From a virus (lineage: Duplodnaviria > Caudoviricetes), in IMG/VR virus record IMGVR_UViG_3300012920_000001, positions 1-54,793 of that record: a stretch of 54,793 nucleotides of DNA; one strand, given 5' to 3'. Shown here piece after piece: positions 5,719-53,304 of this stretch; the stretch's first letter is position 1, and each line of letters begins with the position of its first letter. Below the pieces are notes generated by a model, which did no database searches, was not told the DNA's origin, and saw nothing but the letters and a program-made list of their open reading frames with translations. The position numbers were made by a program, and so were the translations under genes.

Positions 5719-6001
5719 ACAAATTTACAACTTTTAATTCAGCGACCTGACGATTCGATCCCAAATTTCTAATTGTTCGGATGCAACCGTCGATGGTGTA
5801 ATCACCGTTAAGAAAATTTTTGACGGTCTGAATCAGATCACCCTTCGTGCCGATCATCAACTCTTGGACGATGGAGTCAAGGGGCATCCCCAACTCCAAC
5901 GCCTCAGCCCGTGCCTCAGCAACCGTATCAAACCAACGGGTGTCGTTTGCCATGTCAAACCCACTCCGCATTTTGTTCTCAATTACCCTGTACATTCTCA
6001 T
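5699..6001 (-). CDS. Hypothetical early protein
   Basis: ATGA overlap with upstream gene; stop lies in the P2 palindrome. Confidence 0.65.
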   Translation of the reverse strand: MRMYRVIENKMRSGFDMANDTRWFDTVAEARAEALELGMPLDSIVQELMIGTKGDLIQTVKNFLNGDYTIDGCIRTIRNLGSNRQVAELKVVNLFDTTPE

Positions 6002-6495
6002 GCCGCTAACCTCGCTTTGTTTGTGTTGACCAATTCTCTTCGCAAAATCCGGTAGATCCTTTGCCAGTTCTGACCGTGAGGTGTGTTGTCACCATTACGC
6101 AACCACCGTGTAGTATCCCAATAGTTGTAGTGAATCATGTGAGCCACTTCATGCGCTACCGTCAGCATCAATGCATCCTCTGGCGTTGCAAACTCCATTT
6201 CTCCGATCACGGGATCATTTTTAATCCGAGCATACTCATGGACGAATGTGTCACCCTTGCGAAATCGAGCAACGTCGATGCATACATAATTTTCGCCGCC
6301 ATAAGATCGCTGACCTTTACATTTAATTTTGAGGTACAACTTATCCCAGACATCAGCCATTGTGAGACGCTTGGAATTTGGCCCCGTGATCTCCCACTTG
6401 GCTTTTACAATCTCCTTGATGCATTTTTTGGTAAGGCGTTTCACCAAGTCGCGTTCCGCAGTGGTGACGTTTTTAGACTTCTTGATCAATCCCAT
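5998..6495 (-). CDS. SprT-like zincin metallopeptidase-domain protein
   Basis: TVAHEVAH (HExxH) followed by HGQNWQ, matching SprT-like HExxH...HGxxW; ACGGAGA RBS. Confidence 0.7.
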   Translation of the reverse strand: MGLIKKSKNVTTAERDLVKRLTKKCIKEIVKAKWEITGPNSKRLTMADVWDKLYLKIKCKGQRSYGGENYVCIDVARFRKGDTFVHEYARIKNDPVIGEMEFATPEDALMLTVAHEVAHMIHYNYWDTTRWLRNGDNTPHGQNWQRIYRILRRELVNTNKARLAA

Positions 6496-11229: not shown

Positions 11230-11714
11230 TTACGATTGGCATAGATCCGGGTCTGAGAGGGGCCATTGGAATCCTAGATAATGGACAGTTTAAATCCGTA
11301 CACGACATGCCAGTGATGAATAAAGGTGGTGGTAAGGTCAAATGGGAAGTTGATGTGTCAGCTACGATCAACTTACTACGACAAAATAGTCGTAAGGAAG
11401 GTGAACCTGAAGATTTTATTTCGTGCGCTATTGAACGAGTTAACGCCCATCCGGGTCAGGGAGTTTCAAGCGTATTTAGCTTGGGTGATTCTTTCGGCAC
11501 TGCTCGTGCTTGCGTGGCTAGTTGCCGATTCGAGTTGCGTTATGTGATGCCCCAAGTGTGGAAAAAACATTTTGGATTATCGGCAGATAAAGAACAGGCC
11601 AGAGCAGTTGCCCTGACCTTGTTTCCCGATGCTCCAATTAATTTAAAAAAGCACGCAGACCGAGCCGAGTCCTTGTTGATGGCTAGGTGGTTGTGGGAGA
11701 CGGAGTTTGAATAG
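11226..11714 (+). CDS. RuvC-like (MOC1-like) Holliday junction resolvase
   Basis: IGIDPG, AIERV, PQVWKK, DRAESLL motifs. Confidence 0.8.
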   Translation: MITIGIDPGLRGAIGILDNGQFKSVHDMPVMNKGGGKVKWEVDVSATINLLRQNSRKEGEPEDFISCAIERVNAHPGQGVSSVFSLGDSFGTARACVASCRFELRYVMPQVWKKHFGLSADKEQARAVALTLFPDAPINLKKHADRAESLLMARWLWETEFE

Positions 11715-12351
11715 GTTGCTTTGGATAGCTATCCAAAATTTTATACCTCAACGCTTTTCTTAAATCCTTTTTCTCGCGTTTGCTTCCTAGAAAGTAAATG
11801 TATCGATGTTTTTGAGATCGCTCTACAACCTCATATTTTTCTGGGTCAGCTATCCGTTCTTCTAACGTGCTCTGTGACACGATAGTCTTAGAGTGCAAAT
11901 TAGAGCCACGGACAACCCATTCAGTTCTTTTGGCACTTATACCAGTGTAAACAAAATTGAGTGCTTGATAGATCACTCCTGTATGGTCTTGAGCCGTATC
12001 AGCGTAGGAGACAACTACTTTTGGTCTTGGCAATAGTTTAAGAGCACGACTAACCAGAAAAGACGCTTCGTTTTTCAAATTGTCACGAAGCACAAGTCGG
12101 TTGAGTTCGATGACGTTTTCCTTGTGTTCCACGCCACAGACCCCCTCACACAACGAGGGTGATGGTGGTGTACCAAAAGAAACAATCCCCACAAGTGGCC
12201 CGATACGGAACAAGTCGTGAGGATTGTCACCCTTTTTAAATAACCCAAATGCCCAACTTATAGAGGGTACTCGCCTCGCATAGTGGATATCCAATATGAA
12301 AGGCAAGCAATCTCTATAGTTGATAGGCTCGACGTTATATTCGCTCTCCAT
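11683..12351 (-). CDS. Mom-like adenine-modification protein (GNAT fold)
   Basis: HY, ELNRL, EASFL, VSYAD, HTGVIYQALNF.YTG motifs of the Mu Mom family. Confidence 0.75.
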   Translation of the reverse strand: MESEYNVEPINYRDCLPFILDIHYARRVPSISWAFGLFKKGDNPHDLFRIGPLVGIVSFGTPPSPSLCEGVCGVEHKENVIELNRLVLRDNLKNEASFLVSRALKLLPRPKVVVSYADTAQDHTGVIYQALNFVYTGISAKRTEWVVRGSNLHSKTIVSQSTLEERIADPEKYEVVERSQKHRYIYFLGSKREKKDLRKALRYKILDSYPKQPIQTPSPTTT

Positions 12352-19332: not shown

Positions 19333-20376
19333 TCAATTGCCTGCTAACTTTTGTAGACCTTTGTAAGTAGCCAAACCAGCCGCTATTTGTGACAATGGCG
19401 ATGGTGAGTAAGTCGCGCCCACTGATTGCCCTTGAGTTGTTGTTCGCTTCGGTGCAACCGGAGCTAATCCCCTGATTTGACTAGATAGAAAATCAGCTTG
19501 CTCTCGTGCGTAATTTTGTTGATCCAAAAATTGTTTTTCAGCTGCTGTAAGTTCTCGTTGTAATTGTTGTTGTTGACCAGCACCTGCTGCTTCAAGTGCT
19601 GCTGTGTCGGTGTATCCAAGTGCTTGCCTTTGTGCTCCAAGATTAGCCAAATCGGACAAGGCACCCATTTGCCGTGTTATGTCAGCTTGTTGTATGCCTG
19701 CTACCGTTTGACCGAGGTTAGCTTGTCTATTTAAATCTGCTGCTCGATTAGCCATTGCTTGAGCATATCCCGTGTTAGCTAATTCTGCTTGTTGAGCTAA
19801 AACTGCCTCTTGCGTGTCTCTTAACGCCCTAGCTCCAAAATCACCCATACGACTTGATCCAAATTGACCTGCTCTAATAAAAGCATCGCTTACTGCTGGC
19901 AATAAGTTTTCTTGTAAGTTACGAGCACCTTGTCTTGCAAGTTCGTCCATAACTTGTTGTTGATACGGATTATAATAATTGGAAACGTTTGTAGGTGTGT
20001 CTTCCGCTGCTTTCGTAAAATATGTTTGAGCGGCACCCAACCCAGTTTGGGTGTTAGTGGGTATAATCTCGCTTGGTGTTCCGGGTAATGGAGCTAAACC
20101 AGCTAGAGCACGGATACCCGCTGCCGATGCATCGAGGTCCGGTTGATACGCTCCTTGGGCTTCTTGTACTTGTCTGTAAGCTTGTTGTTGTAATGGTGAT
20201 AGTTCTGCTACCGTTGGTAAATCGTAACTCTCGAAAGGACGATTGGCTAAGTTTTGCGATATTTGTATTTGATTAAATATTGCATCTTGCATCCACCGTG
20301 GTGTTTCGGTAGTGGATGTTGTGTAAGACGTTGCGGTTTGTGGTGCTCCCTGAAATAAACTACCCATGTTAAGCAC
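19333..20376 (-). CDS. Putative DNA ejection/pilot protein
   Basis: Gln/Ala-rich; NPYQQQV, GQFGSSR, C-terminal glycine-rich helix. Confidence 0.6.
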   Translation of the reverse strand: MLNMGSLFQGAPQTATSYTTSTTETPRWMQDAIFNQIQISQNLANRPFESYDLPTVAELSPLQQQAYRQVQEAQGAYQPDLDASAAGIRALAGLAPLPGTPSEIIPTNTQTGLGAAQTYFTKAAEDTPTNVSNYYNPYQQQVMDELARQGARNLQENLLPAVSDAFIRAGQFGSSRMGDFGARALRDTQEAVLAQQAELANTGYAQAMANRAADLNRQANLGQTVAGIQQADITRQMGALSDLANLGAQRQALGYTDTAALEAAGAGQQQQLQRELTAAEKQFLDQQNYAREQADFLSSQIRGLAPVAPKRTTTQGQSVGATYSPSPLSQIAAGLATYKGLQKLAGN

Positions 20377-22198
20377 TCCTTCTCATGTACTCAAGAGGTG
20401 ATTTTGCGTCTGGGCTAAATCTACCTTTTGCTAAAACTTTACCTTTATGCATTCTAAGTTTTTTACGCATATCGTCTAACATTTTGGCCCCTGCGGCGTT
20501 ACTTCCGTCTCCTAACATTGATACTGACTCTGCATCTATAACATATTCTCCATCAGACAACCTAGCGTTTATGACATCATCCCTACCATTACCCGGACCA
20601 CTGACGTAACCGGGAGCGTCCATTATTCCACCTTCGGCAGCGTACATTGTGTCGTTATTCATATAATATTTACTTTGATCATTCATAAAAAATGGACTGC
20701 TTAAAAACTGCCCCAGTGTCATGCCACGTTGATTAGCCTCACCTCTGATTTTTACAAAATCATATTGATTTGTAGTTTTATCGAATATCCCATTTGTTTC
20801 TGCCATAGAAATATCCATTTGGTCTTGTTCACTCAGCCCACTAAGTGCAGCTAAACCTAACGCTCCTATCCCTAATTCCGTCATAGATAAATCATCTGGT
20901 AGTAAATTAGCTACTGGTTCAGGTAGCAAATTCCTTAATGCGGCAAATCCTTCCCCTTGTTGGGGTTGTGACACCTGACCTAATTCTTTTATATCCTCTG
21001 AGAAATCCATTCCACGACCATCGTCTGGAACAAAACGTTCTTCAGTTTGTAAAGAAGGTATATTAGCATACTCATCAGCAATTGTTCCTTCTGGAAATGT
21101 ATTCCTAGCTCCTAATGCTTGACTCAATGACCCTTCAACAAATCGGTTTGAAAAAATAGTTTCATCGTTAGCCAGTGGCATAGTTTCATATGCAAATACT
21201 GGCTCAGGAACGGCTGATACAAAAGGTGTTTCAGCCGAACTTAAATCGCTAGAAGCTACCGGACTTAAAGACGGTTTCATGTTACCACTCATCGCTGCAT
21301 TAGCTTGCATCTGATTGTTGACAAAGGTGCTGGCTCGTTGTGTCATATCTTGAACGAAAGGTTTCGCAAGCGACCCTATGGCCCCATATGCAGCACCACG
21401 GACAGGATCAGAACCCGTCAATGCTGACCCTAACGCTCCAGTGGCACCACCGCCTATCGCTCTTATAGCCGATTCGCTTAAATTCGGAAATTGTTGAGCT
21501 AAACTCTCGGAAATTCCCGGAGCAAATCCACCTAAACCACCAGATACAGCACCGACCAGAGGATCACCACCAGTGAGAAGAGATGTACCGCCACCTAGTA
21601 TTGCACCGCCAACTACACCTTGAGCTAACGCACTAGCACCACTCCCAAGAACGGCAGCACCGATAGTAGGTGCTAAGACGGGTGCCACAAAACTTAAAGC
21701 AATTGGAAGGGCAACTTTGAGAACATTTTTGAGACCTTTGTATTCTCGTAGTCCGGTGTTTGGGTTGACTGTTCCTTGACCACCCATCCTACGGAGCACC
21801 TCAGCCTCACGGTCATTGATGTGAGCTAATTGTCGGTCACCACCTTGGCCCATACGAGCCAACTGTTTACCGGATACTGCAAGTCCACCTCGTGCATAAC
21901 CTTGTTGTGCTAATCTTTCTTGCATTCCATACAAGACCACTAGAAGGCTTATAATGAGCACTTCATCAAATTGTGGGGGAAACATACCCTCATCTATTAA
22001 ACCGTCTTTTATAGCCGCCATACGGACTTCTGGGTACACTTCTGGGTTCTGCAATACATACTCAAGCATTTGTATAGCTTCAGTGAGATCCTCAGCCACC
22101 ATGTTGGTTCCGGATAATTGTTGTTCGATGACTGTAATCGTTTCTTGAAAACGTGGATCTTGCATTGCAATTGATAGGATTTGTTCTTTCATACTCAT
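20369..22198 (-). CDS. Putative internal virion protein with glycine-zipper segment
   Basis: YARGG..LAHIN..EA.VL..MGG.GT.NP.TGL.EY and YAAEGG..GPGNGRDD.I.ARLSDGEYV modules. Confidence 0.65.
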   Translation of the reverse strand: MSMKEQILSIAMQDPRFQETITVIEQQLSGTNMVAEDLTEAIQMLEYVLQNPEVYPEVRMAAIKDGLIDEGMFPPQFDEVLIISLLVVLYGMQERLAQQGYARGGLAVSGKQLARMGQGGDRQLAHINDREAEVLRRMGGQGTVNPNTGLREYKGLKNVLKVALPIALSFVAPVLAPTIGAAVLGSGASALAQGVVGGAILGGGTSLLTGGDPLVGAVSGGLGGFAPGISESLAQQFPNLSESAIRAIGGGATGALGSALTGSDPVRGAAYGAIGSLAKPFVQDMTQRASTFVNNQMQANAAMSGNMKPSLSPVASSDLSSAETPFVSAVPEPVFAYETMPLANDETIFSNRFVEGSLSQALGARNTFPEGTIADEYANIPSLQTEERFVPDDGRGMDFSEDIKELGQVSQPQQGEGFAALRNLLPEPVANLLPDDLSMTELGIGALGLAALSGLSEQDQMDISMAETNGIFDKTTNQYDFVKIRGEANQRGMTLGQFLSSPFFMNDQSKYYMNNDTMYAAEGGIMDAPGYVSGPGNGRDDVINARLSDGEYVIDAESVSMLGDGSNAAGAKMLDDMRKKLRMHKGKVLAKGRFSPDAKSPLEYMRRSA

Positions 22199-36854: not shown

Positions 36855-37265
36855 TTACCAAGACTTTCTTTTAAATTGGGCATCACCGGGCATTGCCTTG
36901 AAACCACCTTTTGATTTCATGGAACCGCCTTTCATCATGCCTTTACTCTTCATGGAACCACCACGCATCATGCCTTTGGTTTTCATAGAACCACCACGCA
37001 TCATGCCTTTGGTTTTCATAGAACCACCACGTTTCATATCCATCGTTCCGACAGACTGATAAGCTCTACGGCCCATAGCTTTTTCCATACCCTTGCTTTC
37101 ATCTCTACGAGACTTCATGCTCTGGGATTTGGAAGACTCTTTGCCTCTTCTCATACCGAGAGATTCGTCAAGCCTTGCGTTGTAGCCTTGTTTCTTACCG
37201 CCCTTGGCATAGCCTTTGGACTTCATCATTCTTTTGCCGCCTTTGGCATAACCTTTAGATTTCAT
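36855..37265 (-). CDS. Very basic repeat protein made of xxxGG units
   Basis: KGYAKGG x2, MKRGG, MMRGG x2, MMKGG; underlying 30-nt and 39-nt DNA repeats. Confidence 0.7.
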   Translation of the reverse strand: MKSKGYAKGGKRMMKSKGYAKGGKKQGYNARLDESLGMRRGKESSKSQSMKSRRDESKGMEKAMGRRAYQSVGTMDMKRGGSMKTKGMMRGGSMKTKGMMRGGSMKSKGMMKGGSMKSKGGFKAMPGDAQFKRKSW

Positions 37266-37819
37266 CGTTTTCTCCGTTTAATATCATATTCAGCTTCGCC
37301 CCGAAGTCTACGCATTTCGTCACGAGCATTTCTTTCCCTAGATGCAACTCTTTTCAGTTGTTGACGCTTGTCGCGTCTTTCCTGAGCATCTTTGGGTCTT
37401 CGTGCTCTAACTCTACGCATTTCATCAGCGGCATCGTCCTGAACACCAATGACACGAGCTTCCTCATCACGAATATTACGGTTGACTCTACCGCCATCAG
37501 CTTTATTCATTTTTGAAAAAGTCTTGGCTAGGTTGGCTCTTTTCTGAGTGGTTGCAGATGGTTTACCAGCACCTTTTTTAGCTGGCTTCCCTTCGGCTAA
37601 TTTGTTGATTACGCCCTTGGGAATTTTTCCATCCTTCATTTTGACCCCTTCACTTTTAACGTAAGAAGTCAACGCACCCGGCTTTTTTACAGCCCCCTGA
37701 ATCCAATTTTTGTCAGATGTTGATCCACCTTTTTTCATCCCACGAGAACTTGATTTTGTGAAACCAAACGAAGAATCAAAATGCCAACCGTCTCGGAAGG
37801 GATAGCTCGATTTCATCAT
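37262..37819 (-). CDS. Basic modular protein (start revised to ATG 37819)
   Basis: ATGA overlap; NWIQGAVKKPGAL...KRANLAKT module flanked by MKKGG and KADGG. Confidence 0.7.
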   Translation of the reverse strand: MMKSSYPFRDGWHFDSSFGFTKSSSRGMKKGGSTSDKNWIQGAVKKPGALTSYVKSEGVKMKDGKIPKGVINKLAEGKPAKKGAGKPSATTQKRANLAKTFSKMNKADGGRVNRNIRDEEARVIGVQDDAADEMRRVRARRPKDAQERRDKRQQLKRVASRERNARDEMRRLRGEAEYDIKRRKR

Positions 37820-38589
37820 GCATCTCCCATACCGGAATGGTTTGAACAATAGTAATACAGTTCTGGTGTTGAGTCGGTGGTATCTATTTGAGTAAATGCA
37901 CCTGCCGTACCCGCTGTATTATTTATAGTCACCCCATCGGTGTATTCGACACCACCTGCGTGTGTTCCATTTGGCGTTGTGCTGAATCGCAATGGATGGT
38001 TGTTGTTGGTATTATCACTCTGTAAAAAGCGATAACTTCTGTTTGCTTCGAATGTGAAGTGTGGGCTTACCGCATCATCAACATAAAAAACATTACCAGT
38101 TCCATAGGAGTTTGTACCCGCTGCGACTCTTACGTTGTAAGACACTAGACCACTAACGTCCGCTGGTCTGTGATACTCCTTGATTGCATGAATTATTATT
38201 GTATAAGTATCACCGTTTGAAGCATTTCTAGTGCTCAAAGCGATATCACCAGCAGCATCGACACCTTTAATGCCACTTGCATTATAGGGTAGATACGGAA
38301 CGTATGGGATATCATATAGTTCACCTTGTGGGAAACTTGCTATGAGAGCATCACCAGCTGGACTTGGATCACCAACCCAAAAAAGATCAACACCCATGTC
38401 ATAAGTCTGACATACGACCTTTGTAATTTTTAGACCATTGCAAGCTAAACCGAACGAGTTTGGAGCAAGTGTAGAAACATCTATCTTGGTAACTTTACTT
38501 TCGCCAGTACCATCCGAGAGATTAGTAAACTTTGCAATGTACTGTCGCTCTCCATCTTGGAGAACTTGAGTTGTGACTGCATCAGCCAT
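37816..38589 (-). CDS. Virion protein with C-terminal cupredoxin-like domain
   Basis: MADAVT.Q...DG..ES.V.K.DVS.L N-terminus; HPLRFS...LYYYCSNHSGMG C-terminus; GGAGG RBS. Confidence 0.6.
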   Translation of the reverse strand: MADAVTTQVLQDGERQYIAKFTNLSDGTGESKVTKIDVSTLAPNSFGLACNGLKITKVVCQTYDMGVDLFWVGDPSPAGDALIASFPQGELYDIPYVPYLPYNASGIKGVDAAGDIALSTRNASNGDTYTIIIHAIKEYHRPADVSGLVSYNVRVAAGTNSYGTGNVFYVDDAVSPHFTFEANRSYRFLQSDNTNNNHPLRFSTTPNGTHAGGVEYTDGVTINNTAGTAGAFTQIDTTDSTPELYYYCSNHSGMGDA

Positions 38590-42344: not shown

Positions 42345-42776
42345 TCAGATAAATGCTTTTATTTGAAGTGGGTCACCTGTCACTTTTCCAATGATGTCGA
42401 GATCATTAAAAATTACGAACAGTGCTTTTTCGCCATTGGGATCTTTATCCAAAGGCACTTCCCATCGGTCACCACCGTATTTTGGAACCCTTACAAAATC
42501 GCCATCGGTACACCAACTACCTTCAGGCCATAATTCCATTGTGTTTCTATTTTTGAAAGCCAAAGGTCCAACGTGCATAACTTTACCGATTTGTGTATTC
42601 CACTTTTCGGTATCTTTGGTATCTGTCGTTAAAATAATACCACCCGCTGTTTTCTTTTTAGCTGTTCTAATTTGAACCAGAACACGGCTACCAAAAGGCT
42701 GTATACCTGCGTCAATATCAGGGAATGCCTCTTTCAATGCGTTCTCATAAGTTTTTGTCACCGAATTTTTCCTCAT
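42345..42776 (-). CDS. groES: Co-chaperonin GroES-like protein (likely start GTG 42761)
   Basis: QPFGSRVLV, KTAGGIIL, GKVMHVGP, GDFV..PKYGG, NDLDIIG. Confidence 0.85.
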   Translation of the reverse strand: MRKNSVTKTYENALKEAFPDIDAGIQPFGSRVLVQIRTAKKKTAGGIILTTDTKDTEKWNTQIGKVMHVGPLAFKNRNTMELWPEGSWCTDGDFVRVPKYGGDRWEVPLDKDPNGEKALFVIFNDLDIIGKVTGDPLQIKAFI

Positions 42777-43800: not shown

Positions 43801-46338
43801 TTATGGTTGCGGGTCTGGGTCAATTCCTGTTCCAGTTGATACTTGTACCTTCTCACCCGTAGCCATTTCAGCAGCTGCGAGTAATTTAGCTGTCTCGTTG
43901 TCTGACTCATTCATTCGTTCTCTAGCGGCTAGATCCTCAGCCTTTCTTCTGTTTTCGTTCTCTTGTTTGATAGCTTCAAGGTCAAATTTAGCCTGACGAT
44001 CTGCAATGTCATTCTCTATTTTAGCCGCTTCAAGCTGGTCTTCATTCATCATTTCAGTGGCTTTTAGCTCCATTTTATCCTTTTCAAGCTGCATTTTCGC
44101 CTGAAGTTCCATCTGATCTTGTTGAATCTTAGCTCGATCTGACTCAGCACGTTGTTGAAGCGTCATTTGTGCAATTTCGAGCGATTTATCCTGTGGCATA
44201 GGCGGTTGTGGGGCATATTTCTGCGCTTCGGCAGTCATTTGCGCTAAATCTTTGCCAAAATTGCCTAATTGTTGCTCAATAAATTGTTGAACTTGCATAA
44301 TTACGGTGACTTCGTCCGATGCTTCTTTTTGAACCAAATTTTGAGCTTGTGCTTGTTGCACTGCCGTGTGTGCTTCCACCAAATAGTAGTTCAAAAGATG
44401 ATCCCGCAAGTGAATAGCCATAGGATAGAGAAAATTTGGCATAATTGCAGGGTTTGCACCGAACAGTGGAGATTTCAGGAATGGCAAATGAGTCATCATA
44501 TGTGCCAAATGGTCCTGTTCTGGGAGAACGTATACGGGTCTGCCCAGTGCAGCCGCCACATTTTCACTCACGGGGTCAAGGTTTTCTGTTCCCGGTGGGT
44601 CAACTAACACCTCTGAGTCGGGAACTTTCATAACTCTCAGGAACATTTCCTCGACTTTGCGTGCATCATACATCTGAGGCATCAATCGAGCACGTTCCAT
44701 GATAGCTTGGATCTGCGCGAAACGCTGTGTTTCACTGAAAATGGCTGGATCACTCACAGGTATAACGTCCATTGGACCGTCAAAGTCTGCTGGTTCGATC
44801 TCAAGACCAGCTTCATTGCCCTGTAGATCTTCATCTACCATGTAAGCACTATTGATTCTGTGTAGAATCTTAAAACATCGCTCCATAGATGAATGTAAAC
44901 GTGAGTGAATAGAACTGAATACCACCATACCCTGTTCAATTAGGGCCATTGTAGTACCAACTGGCATATTTGGATTTGTATCACTTAGCTTTTCAAATGA
45001 TGTTTGAACAACACCACGGCCCGCGTCTACTAAAAATCCAAGTAATTGAAACAATGTTGGGCTTGGTCCACTGAACGGAAGAGGCATTGCAATCTTGCGA
45101 ATGTCATCCACCATTGCACCACCTTCAATTTCTGCTATTTCGGTAGGTTGCAAGCTAATTGTTTGTCCACTTGGACCACCTTTGAGCTTCAACATCGTTG
45201 GTATGTTTTGAATGTGAGCACTATCCATCAATGCCCTCAATGCTCCGGTTGCAGCACCACTCAAACCACCAATCATCTGGGTCAAACCGATAGGATAAGC
45301 ACCACGCCACGGCACAAATGGAAACTCTACGATCCAATCCAACTCGTTTTTCATTTCATCGTCTGCTTCCCAGTTACGATACAATGACAATGCTTTGTTG
45401 GTGGTTTTGTCTATAGTCAGGATATATGGCTCTAGGCCATCATCGAAATCCATGAACGTATAAATTTCAAAGATGGTTCTCAAACCGTCTTCGTTGTAAC
45501 TACTTTCTTGCTTACCTTCGATCTTATCGTTCGCAGTTGTTGCCTTGCTATACTCTGGCTCGTTTGGATAACCAAGATCGACATCGATATACATACCGGA
45601 TTTTACCCGTCTTTCGTATTCCATCTTGGTGATATACTGAACGTGAGTCTTACGTTCTGCCGTATAAAAGTTTGTTGCAGCAAACGGTAAATACACATCG
45701 TCAATCGGGATAAACTCTGACTGAGGTTTACGATGCAAACTATCCCACATAAATTTCATGTACTGACCACCACCCAATGGGAGTTGGGTACTAAGTTGTT
45801 CAAGTTCAGCACGGAACTCAGGCATCTGTTCCGTAGTTTGCCAGTTCATAAAGTCTGTCTTCCGTCTGGCTTTTTCTAGCTTGTCTGGTGTTTGCTCACC
45901 TTGAACTTTACTTTTGACAGGTCCGTTTGACGGGAACGCTTCCTTCATAAATCGTGCGGAAAAGTCAACGCACGCTTGAATTAACATGGGATGTACGACA
46001 CGGTTAGCACCTTCAAATTGTGCTCCACCCGGTGCGTCATCACCAAGTCCAGTACGCTGCAAACCTAATTCGTATTGTTTGTCGCGTTTCTCTCTGGACT
46101 CTTTGTCTTTTGATATCTTGTCTACTAGATCAATGATTGCCGTGTTGAGTTTATTCTGGTCTACCTCTTCGACAATATTAGCAAAATGTGCAAGCCTTTG
46201 TTCTTGGCTCAACTCCATTTCTTCAAGACGAACAAAAGCACCACCGTCTTCTGTTTCTTCAACCTCTGCTAACTCATTTGGGATAGCGACAGTTTCGCCT
46301 TGCTGTTCTTCTTCCATCATTGTTTCGTCAGACATCAT
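43801..46338 (-). CDS. Portal protein
   Basis: 845 aa; HPML..A..DF.AR, YPIGL..MIGGL, PVGTTMAL.E.G, PVSDP, coiled-coil C-terminus. Confidence 0.85.
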   Translation of the reverse strand: MMSDETMMEEEQQGETVAIPNELAEVEETEDGGAFVRLEEMELSQEQRLAHFANIVEEVDQNKLNTAIIDLVDKISKDKESREKRDKQYELGLQRTGLGDDAPGGAQFEGANRVVHPMLIQACVDFSARFMKEAFPSNGPVKSKVQGEQTPDKLEKARRKTDFMNWQTTEQMPEFRAELEQLSTQLPLGGGQYMKFMWDSLHRKPQSEFIPIDDVYLPFAATNFYTAERKTHVQYITKMEYERRVKSGMYIDVDLGYPNEPEYSKATTANDKIEGKQESSYNEDGLRTIFEIYTFMDFDDGLEPYILTIDKTTNKALSLYRNWEADDEMKNELDWIVEFPFVPWRGAYPIGLTQMIGGLSGAATGALRALMDSAHIQNIPTMLKLKGGPSGQTISLQPTEIAEIEGGAMVDDIRKIAMPLPFSGPSPTLFQLLGFLVDAGRGVVQTSFEKLSDTNPNMPVGTTMALIEQGMVVFSSIHSRLHSSMERCFKILHRINSAYMVDEDLQGNEAGLEIEPADFDGPMDVIPVSDPAIFSETQRFAQIQAIMERARLMPQMYDARKVEEMFLRVMKVPDSEVLVDPPGTENLDPVSENVAAALGRPVYVLPEQDHLAHMMTHLPFLKSPLFGANPAIMPNFLYPMAIHLRDHLLNYYLVEAHTAVQQAQAQNLVQKEASDEVTVIMQVQQFIEQQLGNFGKDLAQMTAEAQKYAPQPPMPQDKSLEIAQMTLQQRAESDRAKIQQDQMELQAKMQLEKDKMELKATEMMNEDQLEAAKIENDIADRQAKFDLEAIKQENENRRKAEDLAARERMNESDNETAKLLAAAEMATGEKVQVSTGTGIDPDPQP

Positions 46339-49300
46339 ATGCCTCCAGTATCTGATCAGCCATCATGTCAACTTTTTTGGCGTTGTAAACCCCACCCTTG
46401 GCAAATCGTAACTTTCCTTGAACCCCAATGAACTTTTCATCCGTCTGTGGATCATATCTTCCACCAAGTCTAATACTTCCGTCATCGGTCTGATAAGTTA
46501 TGCCACCCTGAGCTGGACCTGCTTGTAATTGTCCATAACTAAACAAATCTTGCAAGTTTTCCATTCCACCTTGGACACTCGCTGATGCATCTATCACTAA
46601 ATTATCGTTAATGTTTTTGACAATACCCAACTCGGCAAATCCTTGAATTTGGTCAAGTGGTAAAGTTTTCTGTGAAACTTTTTCACCGTCGAAAAACAAA
46701 ATGTCCCGATAGCTACGACCACCACTGACATCAATTCCACCCGTGGCTTGTGCTCCGAGAAAATGTTCGAACAAGTTATCAAAAAAACTTTGACCAACTG
46801 ATCCACCCTCTTGATAGCCACGTTTTTTCATCTCTTCTATCGAGGCTGAAATTGTATCTACGATTTCCGGTGTTATTTCTTGTCCCGGTACTTTGGTGCG
46901 TATCGTTTGAGATTTAGCTGATTCTGATTCAGGTTTGCCTCTAACCATTTTTCCTTCACGCTCTTTGTACAAATCCTGAAATAATTGACTTTGTGGCACA
47001 TCACGCTCAAGAGCACCCAAATATTTCCCAGCCATTTGTGTGTCGTATGTAGAGTGTGGTATTAGAGGATCGGTAATAATATCAGCTTCTAAATCTATTT
47101 CACCAATTGCTCCACCAAACATTCCGGGTGGTGAATCAAGTTGAGATCTGTCCGTTGTAGCAACCCTAGCTTTACCCGGAGACGGAAATCCGGCCTTCTG
47201 TGCTGGTTGTTTCTCCATCATTCTCATAAATTTTTTCCGCACTCTAGACGGTGCCTTAGCAATATAATCACGAAGATCCGGTGAATCTATTCCGGGCCAA
47301 TCCTTTACAGGTCTGAAATCTTTATCTTCACCAACTTGTTTTTTCATTAGAGCGTCAAAGGCTTTCATATCTTTTTTCTTCATGCCACCGCGAGTAATAG
47401 TCACGGCTGTCATTTCTGCAAGCAGCTCCGGTGTAAAATTGTTAAAGTCTAAAGCTCGGGGTGCCATTGTTCCCGTAATACCCACAACTTCTTTACCTGT
47501 TTCTCTCGCTTCTTCTAGAGCACGGTTTTTTAAACGAGCGATTATACTTTGACCCGATGCCCAAATGTTTGTTTCGGGATTATTTGGAAGACGCTTATTC
47601 TCCCCTATTTTTCCTGCATCGCCACGCATATAGTCTCTGCCGCCTTCTGTGAGAACAGGTGTTTCTAATTTGATGTTGTCTACGGCAGTAATTTTTTCAC
47701 CAAGGCTTGAACGATCTCCGTAAAAAGGGATTGCTATTTTCCCTTCCAAATCTTCTATACTGATTGTTTTCTTCGGTGCTAACTCAACTACTGATTCTGA
47801 TTCGACCTCAACCTCAGATGGTGGCTTGTCCATTTTGGTTGCCTGATATTTCAAAGGATCTAACTCTTCTTTGGTCAATCGAGAGTAATCGTCTTTGCCA
47901 GTGTCACCTACATCCCTTGGACCTTTACCGCCTCTACTCTCTGCACCCCTAACAATTTCTTCGGCACGGCTTTCGACAATGTTTGGATCGTATTGTTTCA
48001 GGGCTTTGCGTAAAGGTCTCGTTACACCTTTCAACACTTGACCCGCAACGGGTGCATACTCGGATGTTCCTAGAAGTGCAGCAGTTCCTGCCGCAAGGGC
48101 TGGCATATATTGACCAGCTTGAATATTCTTCAAAGCATCTATTGCGTCACTTCCAATATCTCGTGGATCAGTAGGAACAACAATGTCATATCCCAACAAC
48201 AAGGCATCTAAACTATCAATACGACCATCGTTATTATAGTCAGCAAGATTAGATCTCTGTTTGGTTACTTCTCTTTGGAAATCTCTTTCGTCCATGCCCA
48301 AGTCAAGCTCGACTGAACCACCCTCGGCATAAGTTACATCGGTCAGAAAGTCTTTACGCATCTTGTCCGTAATGTCCATTCGCCAATCACCGTTCGGTGT
48401 CTGGTATGGTTCTACGCCATACTTCTTACCGATCTTCTTGGCTTCCTTGACCATCACAGTGTCGTATAACTGTCTCGCACCTTTCGTTAGATTTCTTCCT
48501 TGATCGTCTATCGAATCTTTAACGACAGGTTTATCAAATGCAAAACCGAACTCTGCATCCGTGCCATAATTTGGATTATTATTGTAAGCGTCAGCTACTT
48601 CATCTCCATAATTCTCACGCAACCATTTGACTTCCCCGTGTTGCAAAGCAAATGCATCCACATAATCTTCTATTTCTTCTTCTTTTACCGGATCATAATA
48701 TTCAATTTTTCCCTCAGCAGGAGAATATCTGAACGACTCAATGTGCTTCACTTGATCACGGACACTTGCCGATTGATTGCCACTTATCCAACCAATGGCA
48801 TCGTCGGCATTATCAACACCCTCGTTGATTAATCGTTGCATTGCTAACTTGGGCCACTCTTTCAAAAATGGGAAGTCTTTAGGCACACCCGGTGGGGTAA
48901 CTATTCGGGCTAACAGCCTTCGTTTTGCTATCAGCCGATCTTTCTCAAATCGCAATTTTCCAACTTTGTTCTGGGCATCTCTGAGGGCAGGAAAATTTCC
49001 TTCCATTCGGTATTTAGGTGTAAACTGATTAGCTAGGTCTATAAGTTCTGTGACTTCTTGTATCTCTTCCCGTATTTCTTCTTCTACTTTTGCTTTATTT
49101 GCGAGGGTTATTTTTTGTTCGCCTAATTCATCGAAGGCACGCTGAATGTTTTCGGCTATCTCAGATGCATTACCCTTATAGGCTTCGTTTCTAGCAGGAT
49201 CACGGACGATTTCATTGTGCAAAACTATTTTAAGATTGTTTCTGTCTTCCAAAAGTCTTCGCGCATTTGTATCTATCGGAGTGTTGAGATCAAACTCGCC

Positions 49301-50560
49301 ATATTGAGCTTTTGCTATTGCAGTATCCGATTGCATCTCTTCCGCAAACGTCACGTTCTTCGGCTCTTCCATCCCTTTCTGGCCCGGAATAGCATTGTCT
49401 TGAAATCTATCGCTCCGTATATGAAATATTGTGTTTTCATACCCCCTGTAGTGTGGATTAGGCAAACTAAAGTAATTGCCACCTTGTGTGCGTATATTTT
49501 CTTTTTGATATTGGACTGCCATCTCCGGAGTTAGTCCCACGAGTAACTCTTGATACTCATCTGAGTCGATAGGATCATAATCAGGAGAAATCGACCTTGG
49601 TCTTCTCATGACTGTCGCATACTCTGGAACAACACCCGTGTCATCAAATTTTAATAGTTCTTCTCGGATAGCACCTGACTTTGGCGTTCTTCTCTGCAAC
49701 GCTTTTTGTAGGTACTCTGTCGTCACAGTATCGTCAGGTTTCTCGCCAGCCATCTCCTGTAACTTCGCTTGGTATCTTACATCTTCAAGTTCCGGTTCGA
49801 TAAATTGCTTCTCAGTTGGGCTGATGTCCTCAGTAAGTTTTCTTACTTGACCCACCGTCATTTTTTGTTGTGGACTGCTACCGAGTCTTTCTCCAAGTCG
49901 GCCCTTATAACTCGCAGCTTCTAACACGGAAGTATCCGGTAGTTTCTGTCCAACTTCCTGTAAGAAACTCTTGATCGGTCTGCCTATCGTGCTCGTAGCA
50001 AACTTCGCCCCCGGAATGTAATCCGCAGCCATCAACGTACCCAAGCCAGCCATTGCCATGCCCTTTGCAATGTCACCCTGTTTGATGTTACTGCCAGCTT
50101 GCTTTAATGCCCCAGCAATCTCGGTTGGGTAAGACGGACGTAAAAACTCATAGGCATCAATGATATCAATTCGTCCATCGTCGTTTAAATCAGCTAAGGC
50201 TCCACGTTGTTGTGTTACTAAACGATCACCCATTGCCTCGGATAGTGGGTCATCTCCGGTGACACCCAACACACGACCACCCTCGTTCCACTTTACCTTG
50301 TTAGCCCAGTACGCTGCCGAAGTCTTACCCTTAGCAATATTCTTTGCGTGTCTAGCCTTGAATGACTTACGTCTGGCCTTTTGTTTTTTGGATTCGCCCT
50401 TCTTAGGCTTGCCCGCCGTGCTCACACCTTGTTGACCAAACCGGATTAGTCTCTCGGTGCCATTGTCGTTGATCTTGACAACGTGAGATTTGGTTGGGTG
50501 GTTAGGCGTGCGTCTCGGTTTGTTTAATTGCAAACTATCTTTGAGAGACTTCTTGCTCAT
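46328..50560 (-). CDS. Large modular protein (1410 aa), candidate polyprotein/internal virion protein
   Basis: Basic DUF6321-like N-terminus; four aromatic-x-x-GG motifs; duplicated D.N.DGRID..D loop. Confidence 0.75.
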   Translation of the reverse strand: MSKKSLKDSLQLNKPRRTPNHPTKSHVVKINDNGTERLIRFGQQGVSTAGKPKKGESKKQKARRKSFKARHAKNIAKGKTSAAYWANKVKWNEGGRVLGVTGDDPLSEAMGDRLVTQQRGALADLNDDGRIDIIDAYEFLRPSYPTEIAGALKQAGSNIKQGDIAKGMAMAGLGTLMAADYIPGAKFATSTIGRPIKSFLQEVGQKLPDTSVLEAASYKGRLGERLGSSPQQKMTVGQVRKLTEDISPTEKQFIEPELEDVRYQAKLQEMAGEKPDDTVTTEYLQKALQRRTPKSGAIREELLKFDDTGVVPEYATVMRRPRSISPDYDPIDSDEYQELLVGLTPEMAVQYQKENIRTQGGNYFSLPNPHYRGYENTIFHIRSDRFQDNAIPGQKGMEEPKNVTFAEEMQSDTAIAKAQYGEFDLNTPIDTNARRLLEDRNNLKIVLHNEIVRDPARNEAYKGNASEIAENIQRAFDELGEQKITLANKAKVEEEIREEIQEVTELIDLANQFTPKYRMEGNFPALRDAQNKVGKLRFEKDRLIAKRRLLARIVTPPGVPKDFPFLKEWPKLAMQRLINEGVDNADDAIGWISGNQSASVRDQVKHIESFRYSPAEGKIEYYDPVKEEEIEDYVDAFALQHGEVKWLRENYGDEVADAYNNNPNYGTDAEFGFAFDKPVVKDSIDDQGRNLTKGARQLYDTVMVKEAKKIGKKYGVEPYQTPNGDWRMDITDKMRKDFLTDVTYAEGGSVELDLGMDERDFQREVTKQRSNLADYNNDGRIDSLDALLLGYDIVVPTDPRDIGSDAIDALKNIQAGQYMPALAAGTAALLGTSEYAPVAGQVLKGVTRPLRKALKQYDPNIVESRAEEIVRGAESRGGKGPRDVGDTGKDDYSRLTKEELDPLKYQATKMDKPPSEVEVESESVVELAPKKTISIEDLEGKIAIPFYGDRSSLGEKITAVDNIKLETPVLTEGGRDYMRGDAGKIGENKRLPNNPETNIWASGQSIIARLKNRALEEARETGKEVVGITGTMAPRALDFNNFTPELLAEMTAVTITRGGMKKKDMKAFDALMKKQVGEDKDFRPVKDWPGIDSPDLRDYIAKAPSRVRKKFMRMMEKQPAQKAGFPSPGKARVATTDRSQLDSPPGMFGGAIGEIDLEADIITDPLIPHSTYDTQMAGKYLGALERDVPQSQLFQDLYKEREGKMVRGKPESESAKSQTIRTKVPGQEITPEIVDTISASIEEMKKRGYQEGGSVGQSFFDNLFEHFLGAQATGGIDVSGGRSYRDILFFDGEKVSQKTLPLDQIQGFAELGIVKNINDNLVIDASASVQGGMENLQDLFSYGQLQAGPAQGGITYQTDDGSIRLGGRYDPQTDEKFIGVQGKLRFAKGGVYNAKKVDMMADQILEAYDV

Positions 50561-50562
50561 AA

Positions 50563-51705
50563 TTATTCGCCACCACCGCCACTGCCAATTCCACCAAAAG
50601 GACCGTCATCGTCATTTCCACTGGTCAACCCCGGATAGCCGGGGGAATTGAACTGCAATTTATCCATTTGTTGAAAGAGTTGTTCTTGGGTGGGAGCGTT
50701 AAACTCCATTGGAGACGGTACACTTCTGTCTTTGCGAGTGCCAGTTTGATCGCTTGTATCATAGGGGTTTCTGTTAATGTCTCCTGTATACATGGCTCGA
50801 AATGTATTTAGAAGAGCGAGGGGATTGACTGTGGGAACAGCGGCAGCTTGCTGAAAGGCGTTTGGCATATCGGCAATCATCTGTTGAACACTGTCATAAC
50901 CTGTTCCAGTGGGTCCACCTAAACTGATTTCCTCTGAACCACCCGTACCATCGACGTTGATATCAGGTGACAAAGTCTCGATGTTGTACTTCTTGGCAAG
51001 TTCCAACAAATCTCTAGCTTGTTTGTCGGCATACGATTCACCCTCACCCGTAATACCCATCTGATCATACGCCTCAAACAACGCCTCGTTACCGCCAAAA
51101 ATTTCGAACCCAGTAACGCCTACCCTATTTGGAGTAAACATAAAGCGCATAACCTCATCCACCCGACCCGGAGCTTTATCTTCATTAGTGCTACCACCAT
51201 CAAAACGATCAATCAACCTATCGTAAAGATTCTGATTGATACCTGATGTATACTTTGCAAAATCTTCAATCGTGTTTACACCAGTATTGAACTCTGGCCT
51301 CATGTCACCTTCCGTTCCCGGATCATCCATATCGTAAGTGTTTGCCATAATGTTTGCAAAGTTCTTCATGCGAGGATCGATTATCCCAAACCCCTCACGC
51401 CCTTCTTGCTTACCAAAGTTCAGGTAATGTTGTCGGGCTACATTCTCAATAAACGATGTCGCGCCTATCGGGTTGGTCCGTAGTCGCTCGTTGTCTCGCG
51501 ATGCAATAGCTAGTTGTTCTTTAGCGTTTTGCATAACGTCAGGGTTAGCCGCAAGGTATTGCATCTCTCTACTAGCTGGTGGCTTGTTAGCTAGTATCTG
51601 TTCTTGTTGCGCCGCAAACTGTCGGAACTTTTCCATGTCGATTTCGCCCGTGACCGGATCTTGTCCGTAGGCATCTTCGACTGATATGAGGTCAGCTACC
51701 ACCAT
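50563..51705 (-). CDS. Hypothetical acidic protein with YLxxNPDV...HY..FG..EGR module
   Basis: AGGAG RBS; motif shared with 17190-19316. Confidence 0.65.
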   Translation of the reverse strand: MVVADLISVEDAYGQDPVTGEIDMEKFRQFAAQQEQILANKPPASREMQYLAANPDVMQNAKEQLAIASRDNERLRTNPIGATSFIENVARQHYLNFGKQEGREGFGIIDPRMKNFANIMANTYDMDDPGTEGDMRPEFNTGVNTIEDFAKYTSGINQNLYDRLIDRFDGGSTNEDKAPGRVDEVMRFMFTPNRVGVTGFEIFGGNEALFEAYDQMGITGEGESYADKQARDLLELAKKYNIETLSPDINVDGTGGSEEISLGGPTGTGYDSVQQMIADMPNAFQQAAAVPTVNPLALLNTFRAMYTGDINRNPYDTSDQTGTRKDRSVPSPMEFNAPTQEQLFQQMDKLQFNSPGYPGLTSGNDDDGPFGGIGSGGGGE

Positions 51706-51714
51706 GTCGTTCTC

Positions 51715-53304
51715 CTAGACCGCATAAGGATTGATCCTCGGCTTGTCGGGCTTAATAGGCTCATCGATATCCATAGCCTGCGGTAGCTCAAACCAGTGAT
51801 CATTTTTGAGATATATCATAGCTTGAGTAAATGTGTCTACATAATCATCATGTGCGGCCACTGGGAATTTAGTCAACTCGTTGTAAAAGTCGTTGGCCCA
51901 ACTAACCCGATGGCCCGGATTTTTTTTACTCTCCGGTATCCACACCATGCCCAGTTCCAAGATCGGTGCGGCCTGATGTGCTCGACTGACTTTGTCTGCG
52001 TTGTGTGGGTTGTACCCCACGGCAGGTACCTTAGCCAATCGCAAATCCTGTAGGAGTGATTGCCCACTGGCCTTGGCCTCGACCAATATCCGATCCGGTC
52101 TTCGTGCTCGGCTGTATGGGCTATCCTTACTCATCCCCCCATACTCCGTGTTCCAATCCTTGATCGCTCTGGCCCGAAGGTCTGGATAGGTCAGGTGCTC
52201 GGACCATGCGTCGATCAACATCACGCCCCTCTCGCCCTCGTGGGTAAACATTGCCCAGACCGTGCAGGCTGTCGGGTCACCCGTTGTCTTTTCCGTAAAG
52301 GCACAGTCATAACTTTGTAGGATATACTCAAACGGTGGTAGCCCCTGATCGTGAGGCCACAACTCAAAAAACTGGGTTCGTAGGATACCGCCCTCGCTCG
52401 GTGTCGGGTCTTGTTGCAACTGGCCTGCCGTGCCATACGTTCCCAACAACTGCTTGAGTTCGGTGATCTCCTTCTCGCCAAACCGTTCCGGACAAATCAG
52501 TTCACCCTCGACTTGCCGTGGGTCATATACTCCGAGGACCGACCGCCTCGGTACACCATCCCACTCGGCTGGGATCATCAAATGTTCCCAACCTCCGATG
52601 TCATCCAAGATGTGGCCTGAGATATCTCGGTCATGCAGTCGTTGCATGATGGTGACCATTGCGTCATTGCGCGGATCGTTCAGTCGGGTGGACCACACCA
52701 TGTCGAACCAATCCAGTGCGCTCTCTCGGATTGTATCTGACTGCGCTTCTTGTGCGGAGTGCGGATCGTCAAGGATCAGTCTCGATCCCCCTTCACCCGT
52801 TGCCGTACCACCAACCGATGTGGCGAGTCGGTATCCGGTCTTGTCGTTCTCGAATCTTTGCTTGGCGTTCTGATCGCCTGACAGCTTGAACATATGGCCC
52901 CAACGTTCCTGATACCACGGGGATTGGACAAGTCTCCGCGCCTTGAGGTTGTCTCGTATGCTGAGATTGCCTGAGTAACTCGCGCATAGGAACTTCTGGT
53001 CCGGTTGAGTCAGCCACTCCCACATGGGCCACATCACACTAACTATCGTGCTCTTACTATGTCGAGGTGGTATGTTGATAAGCAACTTTTGTATCTCGCC
53101 ATCACTGACTGCTTCCAAGTGTTCGCATATCTCTTCGATGTGCCACGACTCGATAAACTTTACGCCCGGTTCTACAACGTGCCAGCTTTGTTTGACGAAC
53201 TCGTAAAGCGAAGCACTCGCCGCCCGTCTCTCTTTCTCTATCCGGATGAGATCGCGCAGTACAGCAGGACTTGTTGTGTTTACATTCTCAGCTAGACTCA
53301 TCAC
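51715..53304 (-). CDS. terL: Terminase large subunit
   Basis: INIPPRHSKS, GTATGEGG, ILDDPH, IMQRLH, QSYDCA, VEAKASG, HDDYVD. Confidence 0.95.
   Translation of the reverse strand: MMSLAENVNTTSPAVLRDLIRIEKERRAASASLYEFVKQSWHVVEPGVKFIESWHIEEICEHLEAVSDGEIQKLLINIPPRHSKSTIVSVMWPMWEWLTQPDQKFLCASYSGNLSIRDNLKARRLVQSPWYQERWGHMFKLSGDQNAKQRFENDKTGYRLATSVGGTATGEGGSRLILDDPHSAQEAQSDTIRESALDWFDMVWSTRLNDPRNDAMVTIMQRLHDRDISGHILDDIGGWEHLMIPAEWDGVPRRSVLGVYDPRQVEGELICPERFGEKEITELKQLLGTYGTAGQLQQDPTPSEGGILRTQFFELWPHDQGLPPFEYILQSYDCAFTEKTTGDPTACTVWAMFTHEGERGVMLIDAWSEHLTYPDLRARAIKDWNTEYGGMSKDSPYSRARRPDRILVEAKASGQSLLQDLRLAKVPAVGYNPHNADKVSRAHQAAPILELGMVWIPESKKNPGHRVSWANDFYNELTKFPVAAHDDYVDTFTQAMIYLKNDHWFELPQAMDIDEPIKPDKPRINPYAV

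Follow-up and report, generated by a model that had tools for sequence, protein, structure and literature searches.

The window analysed here is the whole 54,793-nucleotide (nt) stretch of the IMG/VR record IMGVR_UViG_3300012920_000001 (Duplodnaviria; Caudoviricetes), a complete record of an uncultured phage with direct terminal repeats. On its minus strand, between the genes of the large terminase (TerL) and of the portal, lies a gene encoding a protein of 1410 amino acids (aa), designated P0001, which a sequence-only reading of this DNA had described as a concatenation of independent modules separated by four short motifs. P0001 is a chain of independently evolving, swappable modules. Its parts are listed below from the N-terminus to the C-terminus, with the per-residue confidence of AlphaFold2 models (predicted local distance difference test, pLDDT) for several of them.

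46328..50560, minus strand: whole gene of P0001, ATG start, 1410 aa
50288..50560, minus strand, aa 1-91: module 1, highly basic, net charge +22 (26 Lys and Arg vs 4 Asp and Glu)
50270..50290, minus strand, aa 91-97: junction motif 1, W-N-E-G-G-R-V, pLDDT 23-31 from aa 91
49916..50275, minus strand, aa 96-215: leader copy 1, with an EF-hand/dockerin-like loop, a Gly/Ala hydrophobic stretch and RPIK
48332..49915, minus strand, aa 216-743: module 2 payload, lineage-specific, partly a long helical hairpin, of unknown function
48311..48331, minus strand, aa 744-750: junction motif 2, Y-A-E-G-G-S-V, pLDDT 28 over aa 740-760
47957..48316, minus strand, aa 749-868: leader copy 2, with a half-dockerin Ca-binding loop at aa 764-789
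46826..47893, minus strand, aa ~890-1245: core of module 3, a widespread uncharacterised domain of ~350 aa, pLDDT >90
46796..46816, minus strand, aa 1249-1255: junction motif 3, Y-Q-E-G-G-S-V, pLDDT falling from 93 to 67 to 44 across the motif
46406..46801, minus strand, aa 1254-1385: module 4, beta-rich, dispensable
46385..46405, minus strand, aa 1386-1392: junction motif 4, F-A-K-G-G-V-Y, a pattern match
46331..46390, minus strand, aa 1391-1410: C-terminal tail, a predicted amphipathic helix ending in KKVDMMADQILEAYDV

Junction motifs and modules of P0001

Four matches to the pattern [FWY]x[EK]GG were found in P0001 (W91-NEGG, Y744-AEGG, Y1249-QEGG and F1386-AKGG), at the positions given in the sequence-only reading. 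Shuffled versions of the protein contained 0.12 matches on average and none of 5000 shuffles reached four, so that the motifs can be considered as real. They bound segments of 91, 653, 505, 137 and 24 aa, and both the proposed split and the basic character of the first segment were confirmed. At the DNA level, motifs 1 to 4 read GAGGGTGGT, GAGGGTGGT, GAGGGTGGA and AAGGGTGGG, respectively. The first three are encoded with one G-rich 8-nt string, GAGGGTGG, from which motif 4 (AAGGGTGG) differs by one base; judging from the sequence, this common string could serve as microhomology for in-frame exchanges among relatives. AlphaFold2 models were built for aa 745-1410 with 107 sequences and for aa 1-760 with 46 sequences, and every motif lies at a drop to low confidence.

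Module 1 is matched over aa 7-91 by PHROG 7595, a 96-position profile of unknown function, the match reaching the last profile position. Elsewhere, this module is a stand-alone protein of ~90 aa encoded by many marine phages, with at least 8000 relatives in a large protein collection and a presence in at least 596 viral contigs. Among the matches listed, the C-terminus coincides with the tryptophan of motif 1 (...KVKW) in 115 of 120 homologues, and the stand-alone proteins of phages CRP-1, HMO-2011 and C72C1 likewise end in ...KW at the tryptophan that opens the motif. When P0001 was compared by tblastn with 50,697 phage records, matches were obtained in 48 of them, none spanning 80% of the protein. 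Among the best 40 of these 48 records, 37 matched module 1 only, two matched aa ~930-1255 only, and one, phage C72C1, matched both as separate genes. The picture is the same in the 80 best viral contigs with module 1, where the protein stops after the tryptophan in 75, runs on as W-A-[ED]-G-G-x-V into other proteins of 973-1734 aa in four, and is unresolved in the last one. Conversely, at locus L014 the gene past the homologue of the upstream 380-aa protein begins with MSRKPL followed by RVLGVTGDD..., i.e., the residues that follow the GG of motif 1, and module 1 is missing. Module 1 was modelled with a pLDDT of 61-85 and no match was found when solved structures were searched with its sequence; DUF5754 is a weak lead, from Pfam at relaxed E-value and from the ESM Atlas with a module-1 homologue. 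Module 1 is probably nucleic-acid-binding.

The core of module 3 behaves in a similar manner. An exhaustive HMMER search with aa 92-1253 returned 1358 representatives at E<=1e-3. Among the best 150 of them, one is collinear with P0001 (P0006, 1443 aa, 82% identical) and seven are fragments of close relatives, while in the remaining 142 the best stretch covers the core only. These 142 proteins range from 255 to 2831 aa and carry the core at the N-terminus, in the middle or at the C-terminus; in 91 of them it ends within 15 residues of the C-terminus, i.e., just before the position of motif 3. Within the core, His1169 is invariant and D949, W1000-A-S1002, R1108, R1132 and Y1172 are near-invariant. 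Confidence in the model of aa 745-1410 exceeds a pLDDT of 90 only at aa ~894-1244. Foldseek found 17 similar uncharacterised viral models, and one look-alike in BFVD is labelled 'Structural protein'; among solved structures no Foldseek match reached E<=1e-3 (rows at E 0.2-0.9), and a sequence search with the core profile gave no match. The top VIA-align rows are YTH, ASCH, EVE/THYN1 and McrB-N domains (Z 6.6 to 3.1), the best one (Z 6.6, root-mean-square deviation 3.7, 133 aligned residues) lying below the trust level of the tool. From the model, the core is possibly a PUA-like barrel with a helical insert. The PUA-like readers align over ~105-145 residues with scores below that trust level, and the core differs from them by its ~100-aa helical insert and by its own conserved D/S/R/R/H/Y set.

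No Pfam match was obtained on the core in any of 97 family members. Thirty long core-bearing proteins include five with ART-PolyVal, five with PcfJ, three with LPD23 (one below cut-off) and two with InPase in Pfam; VanY (below cut-off), Amidase_2, Hydrolase_2, SLT and, in one protein, DUF4214 were found in others, and 11 are without a Pfam family. The core homologues of phage C72C1, MW202675 and CRP-902 are encoded in a head-module context.

The junction motif itself recurs in these distant core-bearing proteins. Outside the core, 24 copies of [FWY]x[EK]GG were counted in the 142 distant homologues, compared with 4.15 ± 2.0 after shuffling (maximum 12 in 500 shuffles), and seven of the 24 sit 4-18 residues past the end of the core. 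The string PVY.EGG.DFM, conserved within the core, is a different element and was left out of this count. In 79 non-redundant motif instances, the free positions favoured G at -1 (27), A at +1 (43) and V at +6 (53), with K (22), E (21) or D (18) at +2 and S at +5 (23). These instances give the consensus G-[YF]-A-[KED]-G-G-S-V (G-[YFW]-A-[KED]-G-G-S-V for the peptide joining the modules of P0001), and it is frequently found in tandem with copies 8-11 aa apart. No literature on phages was found for the motif strings among the matches listed. Searches on bacteriophage virion polyproteins and Gly-Gly returned nothing on phage processing in the titles and opening lines of the abstracts.

Both large segments had been proposed to begin with a duplicated leader, and this duplication is real. 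Residues ~109-202 and ~759-852 share 32 identities over 94 positions (pairwise E 2e-9), including VT.QR..LAD.N.DGRID..DA, a Gly/Ala-rich hydrophobic stretch and RP. Leader 2 scores above the cut-off of Pfam Dockerin_1 (28.1 vs 22.9 bits) over half of the profile only (positions 27-52 of 57), and leader 1 scores below it (13.3 bits). The D.N.DG.ID..D pattern of leader 2 is that of type I dockerins; in contrast to the tandem pair of a dockerin, each leader has one loop, and there is no cohesin context. Motif 1 and leader 1 are predicted to be disordered or of low confidence (pLDDT 23-31). Among the proteins compared, the dockerin-type leader was seen only in close relatives. A hydrophobic 'GNY...PG' element may recur towards the N-terminus of distant core-bearing proteins (6 of 142, vs 0.57 after shuffling), which, as a pattern defined post hoc, is a lead only.

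The payload of module 2 has eight homologues in a word-indexed search, all of them fragments or orthologues of the P0001 gene. Parts of it were modelled with a pLDDT of 72-94. A VIA-align fold search returned generic helical hairpins only, and Foldseek against the PDB with both models returned nothing at E<=1e-3. In the ESM Atlas, module 2 (best 0.85) and the module-1 homologue led to unnamed viral clusters and to the DUF5754 lead only, and NCBIfam matched none of the P0001 segments. For module 4, fragments were found and no stand-alone relatives. The 137-aa segment, for which an alternating beta-strand pattern had been read from the sequence, and the 20-aa tail were predicted by AlphaFold2 to be beta-rich and helical, respectively, with low to moderate confidence only. 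The tail was considered as a copy of the C-terminal helix of the core family, and this was not supported: a hidden Markov model (HMM) of 91 such ends matched the end of the core itself (aa 1219-1246) only and not the tail. A complex prediction for the portal with aa 1300-1410 gave a score of 0.00, which weighs neither way.

Reshuffling in the terminase-portal slot

The gene of P0001 occupies a slot whose two flanks are conserved among relatives. The flanking genes, and the slot protein of one related phage, are as follows.

51715..53304, minus strand: large terminase, recognised in Pfam and PHROG scans, conserved left flank of the variable slot
50563-51705, minus strand: 380-aa protein between terminase and slot gene, of no family, with a Gly-rich C-terminal tail
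43801..46338, minus strand: portal (PHROG 1216), conserved right flank of the variable slot
L016 2649-7841, plus strand: slot protein of locus L016, 1731 aa, with a central module 1, HELQH, and partial ART-PolyVal and PcfJ matches

The start of the P0001 gene lies 2 nt past the stop of the 380-aa gene, and its stop region overlaps the start of the portal gene by 11 nt. Ten loci with aligned leaders were obtained from a scan of viral contigs, and loci L016-L019 were added through module 1. The terminase-portal slot is in use at seven related loci and is always filled. In these relatives the flanks are 80-99% (terminase) and 68-99.5% (portal) identical to those of the window, while the architecture of the slot protein differs.

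At L008, L009 and L010, the slot protein has 978 aa (open frame measured between stops; that of L010 runs off the contig) and lacks module 2. Its order is module 1, motif, a single leader, a divergent core, GMNKGG, a longer module 4, FNRGG and the tail. At the nucleotide level, blastn homology with L009 stops at aa 95, resumes at aa 745 and resumes again at aa 1392, and one 11-nt stretch of L009 aligns to both motif 1 and motif 2. At L011, a core of the L009 type is found between flanks ~80% identical to the window. At L006 and L013, most of module 4 is gone (aa ~1277-1390 of P0001) and the tail is retained, the homology stopping at aa 1276 and resuming at aa 1391.

Other architectures are seen at L016-L019, where proteins of 973-1734 aa combine module 1 with the core, with ART-PolyVal, PcfJ or DUF6973, or with an HExxH motif; two of these proteins carry module 1 at an internal position flanked by a motif on both sides. 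The tail is kept in the close relatives and in the L009-type proteins, and L016-L019 have related but different tails. In the slot proteins of the relatives, the conserved C-terminal tail is always preceded by a final motif. Besides, the core was not detected in G001, a 98%-complete relative with a portal 68% identical to that of the window, which makes the core a payload rather than an obligatory part of the head.

The modular organisation put forward from the sequence is thus borne out: stand-alone and reshuffled homologues start or end at the motifs, only close relatives are collinear, and no confident predicted fold spans any of the motifs. The idea of one leader carrying different payloads also found support, since L009 joins a leader of the leader-2 type (73% identical to leader 2) to a divergent core, and L016 has its own unrelated leader of ~110 aa, duplicated behind two junction motifs.

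Other motif-bearing proteins and the head gene neighbourhood

A six-frame scan of the open reading frames (ORFs) of at least 60 aa in the window returned six matches to [FWY]x[EK]GG, four in P0001 and two in the first of the following proteins.

36855..37265, minus strand: P0004, a very basic protein of 136 aa with six motif copies, KGYAKGG twice and M[KR/MR/MK]GGSMK[ST]KG four times
5998-6495, minus strand: SprT-like zincin with HEVAH, 24.1 bits vs a Pfam cut-off of 25.6 bits

Pfam, PHROG and NCBIfam gave no match to P0004, which is possibly an internal protein associated with DNA; its C-terminus, ...KRKSW, resembles that of module 1. Copies of the extended motif cluster in the slot protein and in a handful of structural-region proteins, both in the window and in two related genomes. 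Motif-like strings were also observed in a basic 195-aa protein of this region (37262-37849, minus strand; GMKKGGS and KADGGRV) and in a 609-aa protein (20369-22198, minus strand; GYARGGLAV and YAAEGGIM) which has Gly/Ala-rich hydrophobic stretches and adjoins a gene annotated by PHROG as 'DNA ejection protein'. Pfam and PHROG scans of the ORFs of the window gave no protease above cut-off. The SprT-like zincin was considered as a processing enzyme and not supported, being found in only two of four related records and being unlike the HExxH region of L016.

On the minus strand, the genes follow each other in the order endolysin, small terminase, large terminase, 380-aa protein, P0001 and portal; beyond the portal, the same strand encodes a 256-aa protein, a GroES-like protein, proteins of 328, 176 and 200 aa, and the major capsid protein. 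A megablast search of phage records with this 16-kb head region gave no match. The 380-aa protein is itself variable, with 31-71% identity among relatives; it was not detected in L016-L019, and in G002 a 693-aa ORF stands in its place. The GroES/Cpn10-like gene (42345-42776, minus strand; Pfam E 8e-10) lies within the head module, in the portal-capsid interval, a placement also seen in the annotation of MW202675 and of Roseobacter phage CRP-902. Elsewhere in the genome, a Mom-family protein (11683-12351, minus strand; Pfam E 2.6e-34) suggests by its sequence that the phage modifies its own DNA. It is of interest because of the weak PUA-like, i.e., modified-base reader, lead for the core.

A probable polyvalent cargo protein and the role of its junction peptide

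Taken together, these observations indicate that P0001 is probably a phage-type polyvalent protein, encoded in a hypervariable terminase-portal cargo slot and made of a string of modules joined by a junction peptide. In the main text of the study that defined them, polyvalent proteins are predicted to be packaged in the virion, delivered with the DNA and processed by embedded zincin peptidases; an embedded zincin-like MPTase is common, in about 36% of them, and not obligatory (Iyer et al., 2017, J Bacteriol, PMC5512222). Like the proteins described there, P0001 is one large polypeptide of unrelated, independently occurring domains with extensive mosaicism and is encoded among packaging and head genes. 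Indeed, module 1 and the core are each found alone and recombined, modules 2 and 4 each occur in some relatives and are missing from others, and the complete phage genome has this gene between those of TerL and the portal. A possible further link comes from relatives of the core and of module 1 that also contain ART-PolyVal, LPD23, InPase, PcfJ or cell-wall hydrolase domains, which are hallmark domains of polyvalent proteins in that text. In contrast, P0001 contains no HExxH and no Pfam match to the zincin MPTase, the processing hub proposed there, and its core domain is not in Pfam. The main text of the same study mentions neither a GG junction peptide nor the terminase-portal slot ('linker' and 'glycine' have 0 occurrences each); the core might be listed among the LPDs of its supplement.

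The string consists of the basic module 1, the lineage-specific module 2, the leader and core, the dispensable module 4 and the short C-terminal helix. The junction peptide stands in linkers predicted to be unstructured, and modules are gained, lost or exchanged there through in-frame recombination. According to this proposal, P0001 would be loaded into the procapsid, perhaps through its C-terminal tail and the coupling to the portal gene, and would exit with the DNA, and its modules would act in the host at an early stage. Serving either as a hinge or as a place of cutting, the junction peptide would allow them to function separately.

Several points weigh against the polyvalent assignment. 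Packaging and injection are suggested by the position of the gene and by analogy. P0001 itself has no domain of the Pfam polyvalent network, the half-dockerin loop being its only Pfam match above cut-off. The core has only a weak fold assignment (best Z 6.6) and neither Foldseek nor VIA-align gave an assignable fold for module 2. The only peptidase-like ORF found in the complete genome is the SprT-like zincin, below the Pfam cut-off; it occurs in only two of the four related records, and no copy was detected in two 98%-complete relatives with five and seven motifs in their slot proteins. Finally, the stand-alone versions of the modules are mostly without the motif, and therefore the latter is not a general address tag carried by each module.

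The role of the junction peptide is a more delicate question. P0001 could be a true polyprotein, in which an unrecognised phage or host protease cuts both P0001 and P0004 at G-[YF]-A-x-G-G-S-V, in the head or after injection; we regard this as a tentative possibility that falls well short of an even chance. Such cutting would agree with a short sequence-specific peptide being conserved across very distant proteins, with its place at the junctions of fused modules and its absence from most stand-alone versions, with the six copies packed in the 136 aa of P0004, and with the HExxH of the related slot protein L016. In the processing known as GG-X, virion-internal proteins of adenovirus and African swine fever virus (ASFV), small basic DNA-associated ones included, are delimited by a Gly-Gly preceded by a hydrophobic residue. 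The junction motif is built in the same way, with the difference that in P0001 the hydrophobic residue stands one position further from the GG, and that Pfam and PHROG scans of the phage ORFs revealed no cysteine protease of the Ulp1/adenain type. Proteolytic processing of polyvalent proteins is also predicted in the main text of PMC5512222. However, these scans gave no protease of any kind in the window and P0001 lacks HExxH, while the SprT-like zincin does not track the motif among relatives and does not resemble the HExxH region of L016. The major capsid protein is without a long propeptide, its profile match starting from aa 6, and therefore a classical prohead protease is not expected. 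Moreover, cutting at tandem copies 8-11 aa apart would give tiny peptides, and K, E and D are equally accepted at position +2.

Alternatively, P0001 could remain an uncut multidomain protein in which the motif is a passive, flexible and insulating linker, persisting because recombinants that are joined there stay in frame and fold. This explanation is also possible, though we would not bet on it. It accounts for the motifs lying in low-confidence stretches predicted as coil, for the breaks of the DNA homology blocks at the motifs, with GAGGGTGG in motifs 1-3 and one base off in motif 4, and for neither a protease nor a partner having been found. Nevertheless, a passive linker leaves unexplained the aromatic, Ala and Val residues conserved around the GG in otherwise dissimilar proteins, the different codons of the motif in P0004, and the tandem repeats of this small basic protein.

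In a third explanation, which appears unlikely, the motif, often with a small helix, would be a docking handle that loads the cargo onto the inner face of the HK97-fold capsid, onto the scaffold or onto the portal, in the manner of the cargo-loading peptides of encapsulins. The confinement of the motif, in three genomes, mostly to the slot protein and a few structural-region proteins fits with docking, the multiple tandem copies suggest avidity, and the final motif always stands ahead of the conserved C-terminal tail. Yet stand-alone module 1 stops at the tryptophan, without GG, in 115 of the 120 homologues listed, and in most of the stand-alone core proteins the motif is missing outside the core. 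Hence, the motif tracks fusion and not each cargo, which weakens the docking explanation; besides, no binding partner was identified.

It is more doubtful still that P0001 is a structural component, i.e., an internal core or ejection-channel protein needed for the head or the conduit, resembling the T7 core or a MuF/gp7-like partner of the portal. The overlap with the portal gene, the slot being filled in every relative, the Gly/Ala-rich hydrophobic stretches of the leaders and the BFVD look-alike of the core labelled 'Structural protein' would be accounted for in this way. MuF/SPP1 gp7 proteins are carriers of variable effector domains encoded beside the portal (main text of PMC5512222), and P0001 resembles these minor head proteins in both respects. 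It differs from them by the position of its gene, upstream of the portal, and by having no universal module except, mostly, module 1; Phage_Mu_F was matched neither in Pfam (E up to 10, separate segments) nor in PHROG, where remote homology is possible. Moreover, relatives differ in what the slot holds, the core being undetectable in the 98%-complete relative with a 68%-identical portal and modules 2 and 4 coming and going, and the partner domains are enzymes (ART-PolyVal, InPase). As for an artefact, in which an assembly or frame error would have fused neighbouring genes into one long ORF, the modules are indeed separate genes in some phages (C72C1), but a collinear ORF of 1410-1443 aa with all four motifs occurs in independent records at 59-96% identity and the genome analysed here is complete, with terminal repeats, which makes this explanation barely credible.

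Beyond the polyvalent assignment of P0001, the junction peptide may conceivably be a dedicated processing signal in widespread aquatic phages, a proposal that we put forward with considerable reserve. An unrecognised protease would cut a head-packaged polyprotein and P0004-like proteins at this peptide, which would double as a joint for the exchange of cassettes. If so, separately acting effectors and DNA-associated peptides would be released, and the system would be a phage counterpart of the GG-X core processing of adenovirus and ASFV. Among phage proteins, polyvalent ones would be the first to face host defences. This case offers a searchable junction peptide, a hypervariable slot with near-identical flanking terminase and portal genes, and natural variants differing by single modules at the junctions. 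Hence, both the question of cleavage and that of the modules against the host become directly testable. Two very abundant uncharacterised domains of marine phages, module 1 (at least 8000 relatives) and the core (1358 representatives), are by analogy flagged as probable injected cargo.

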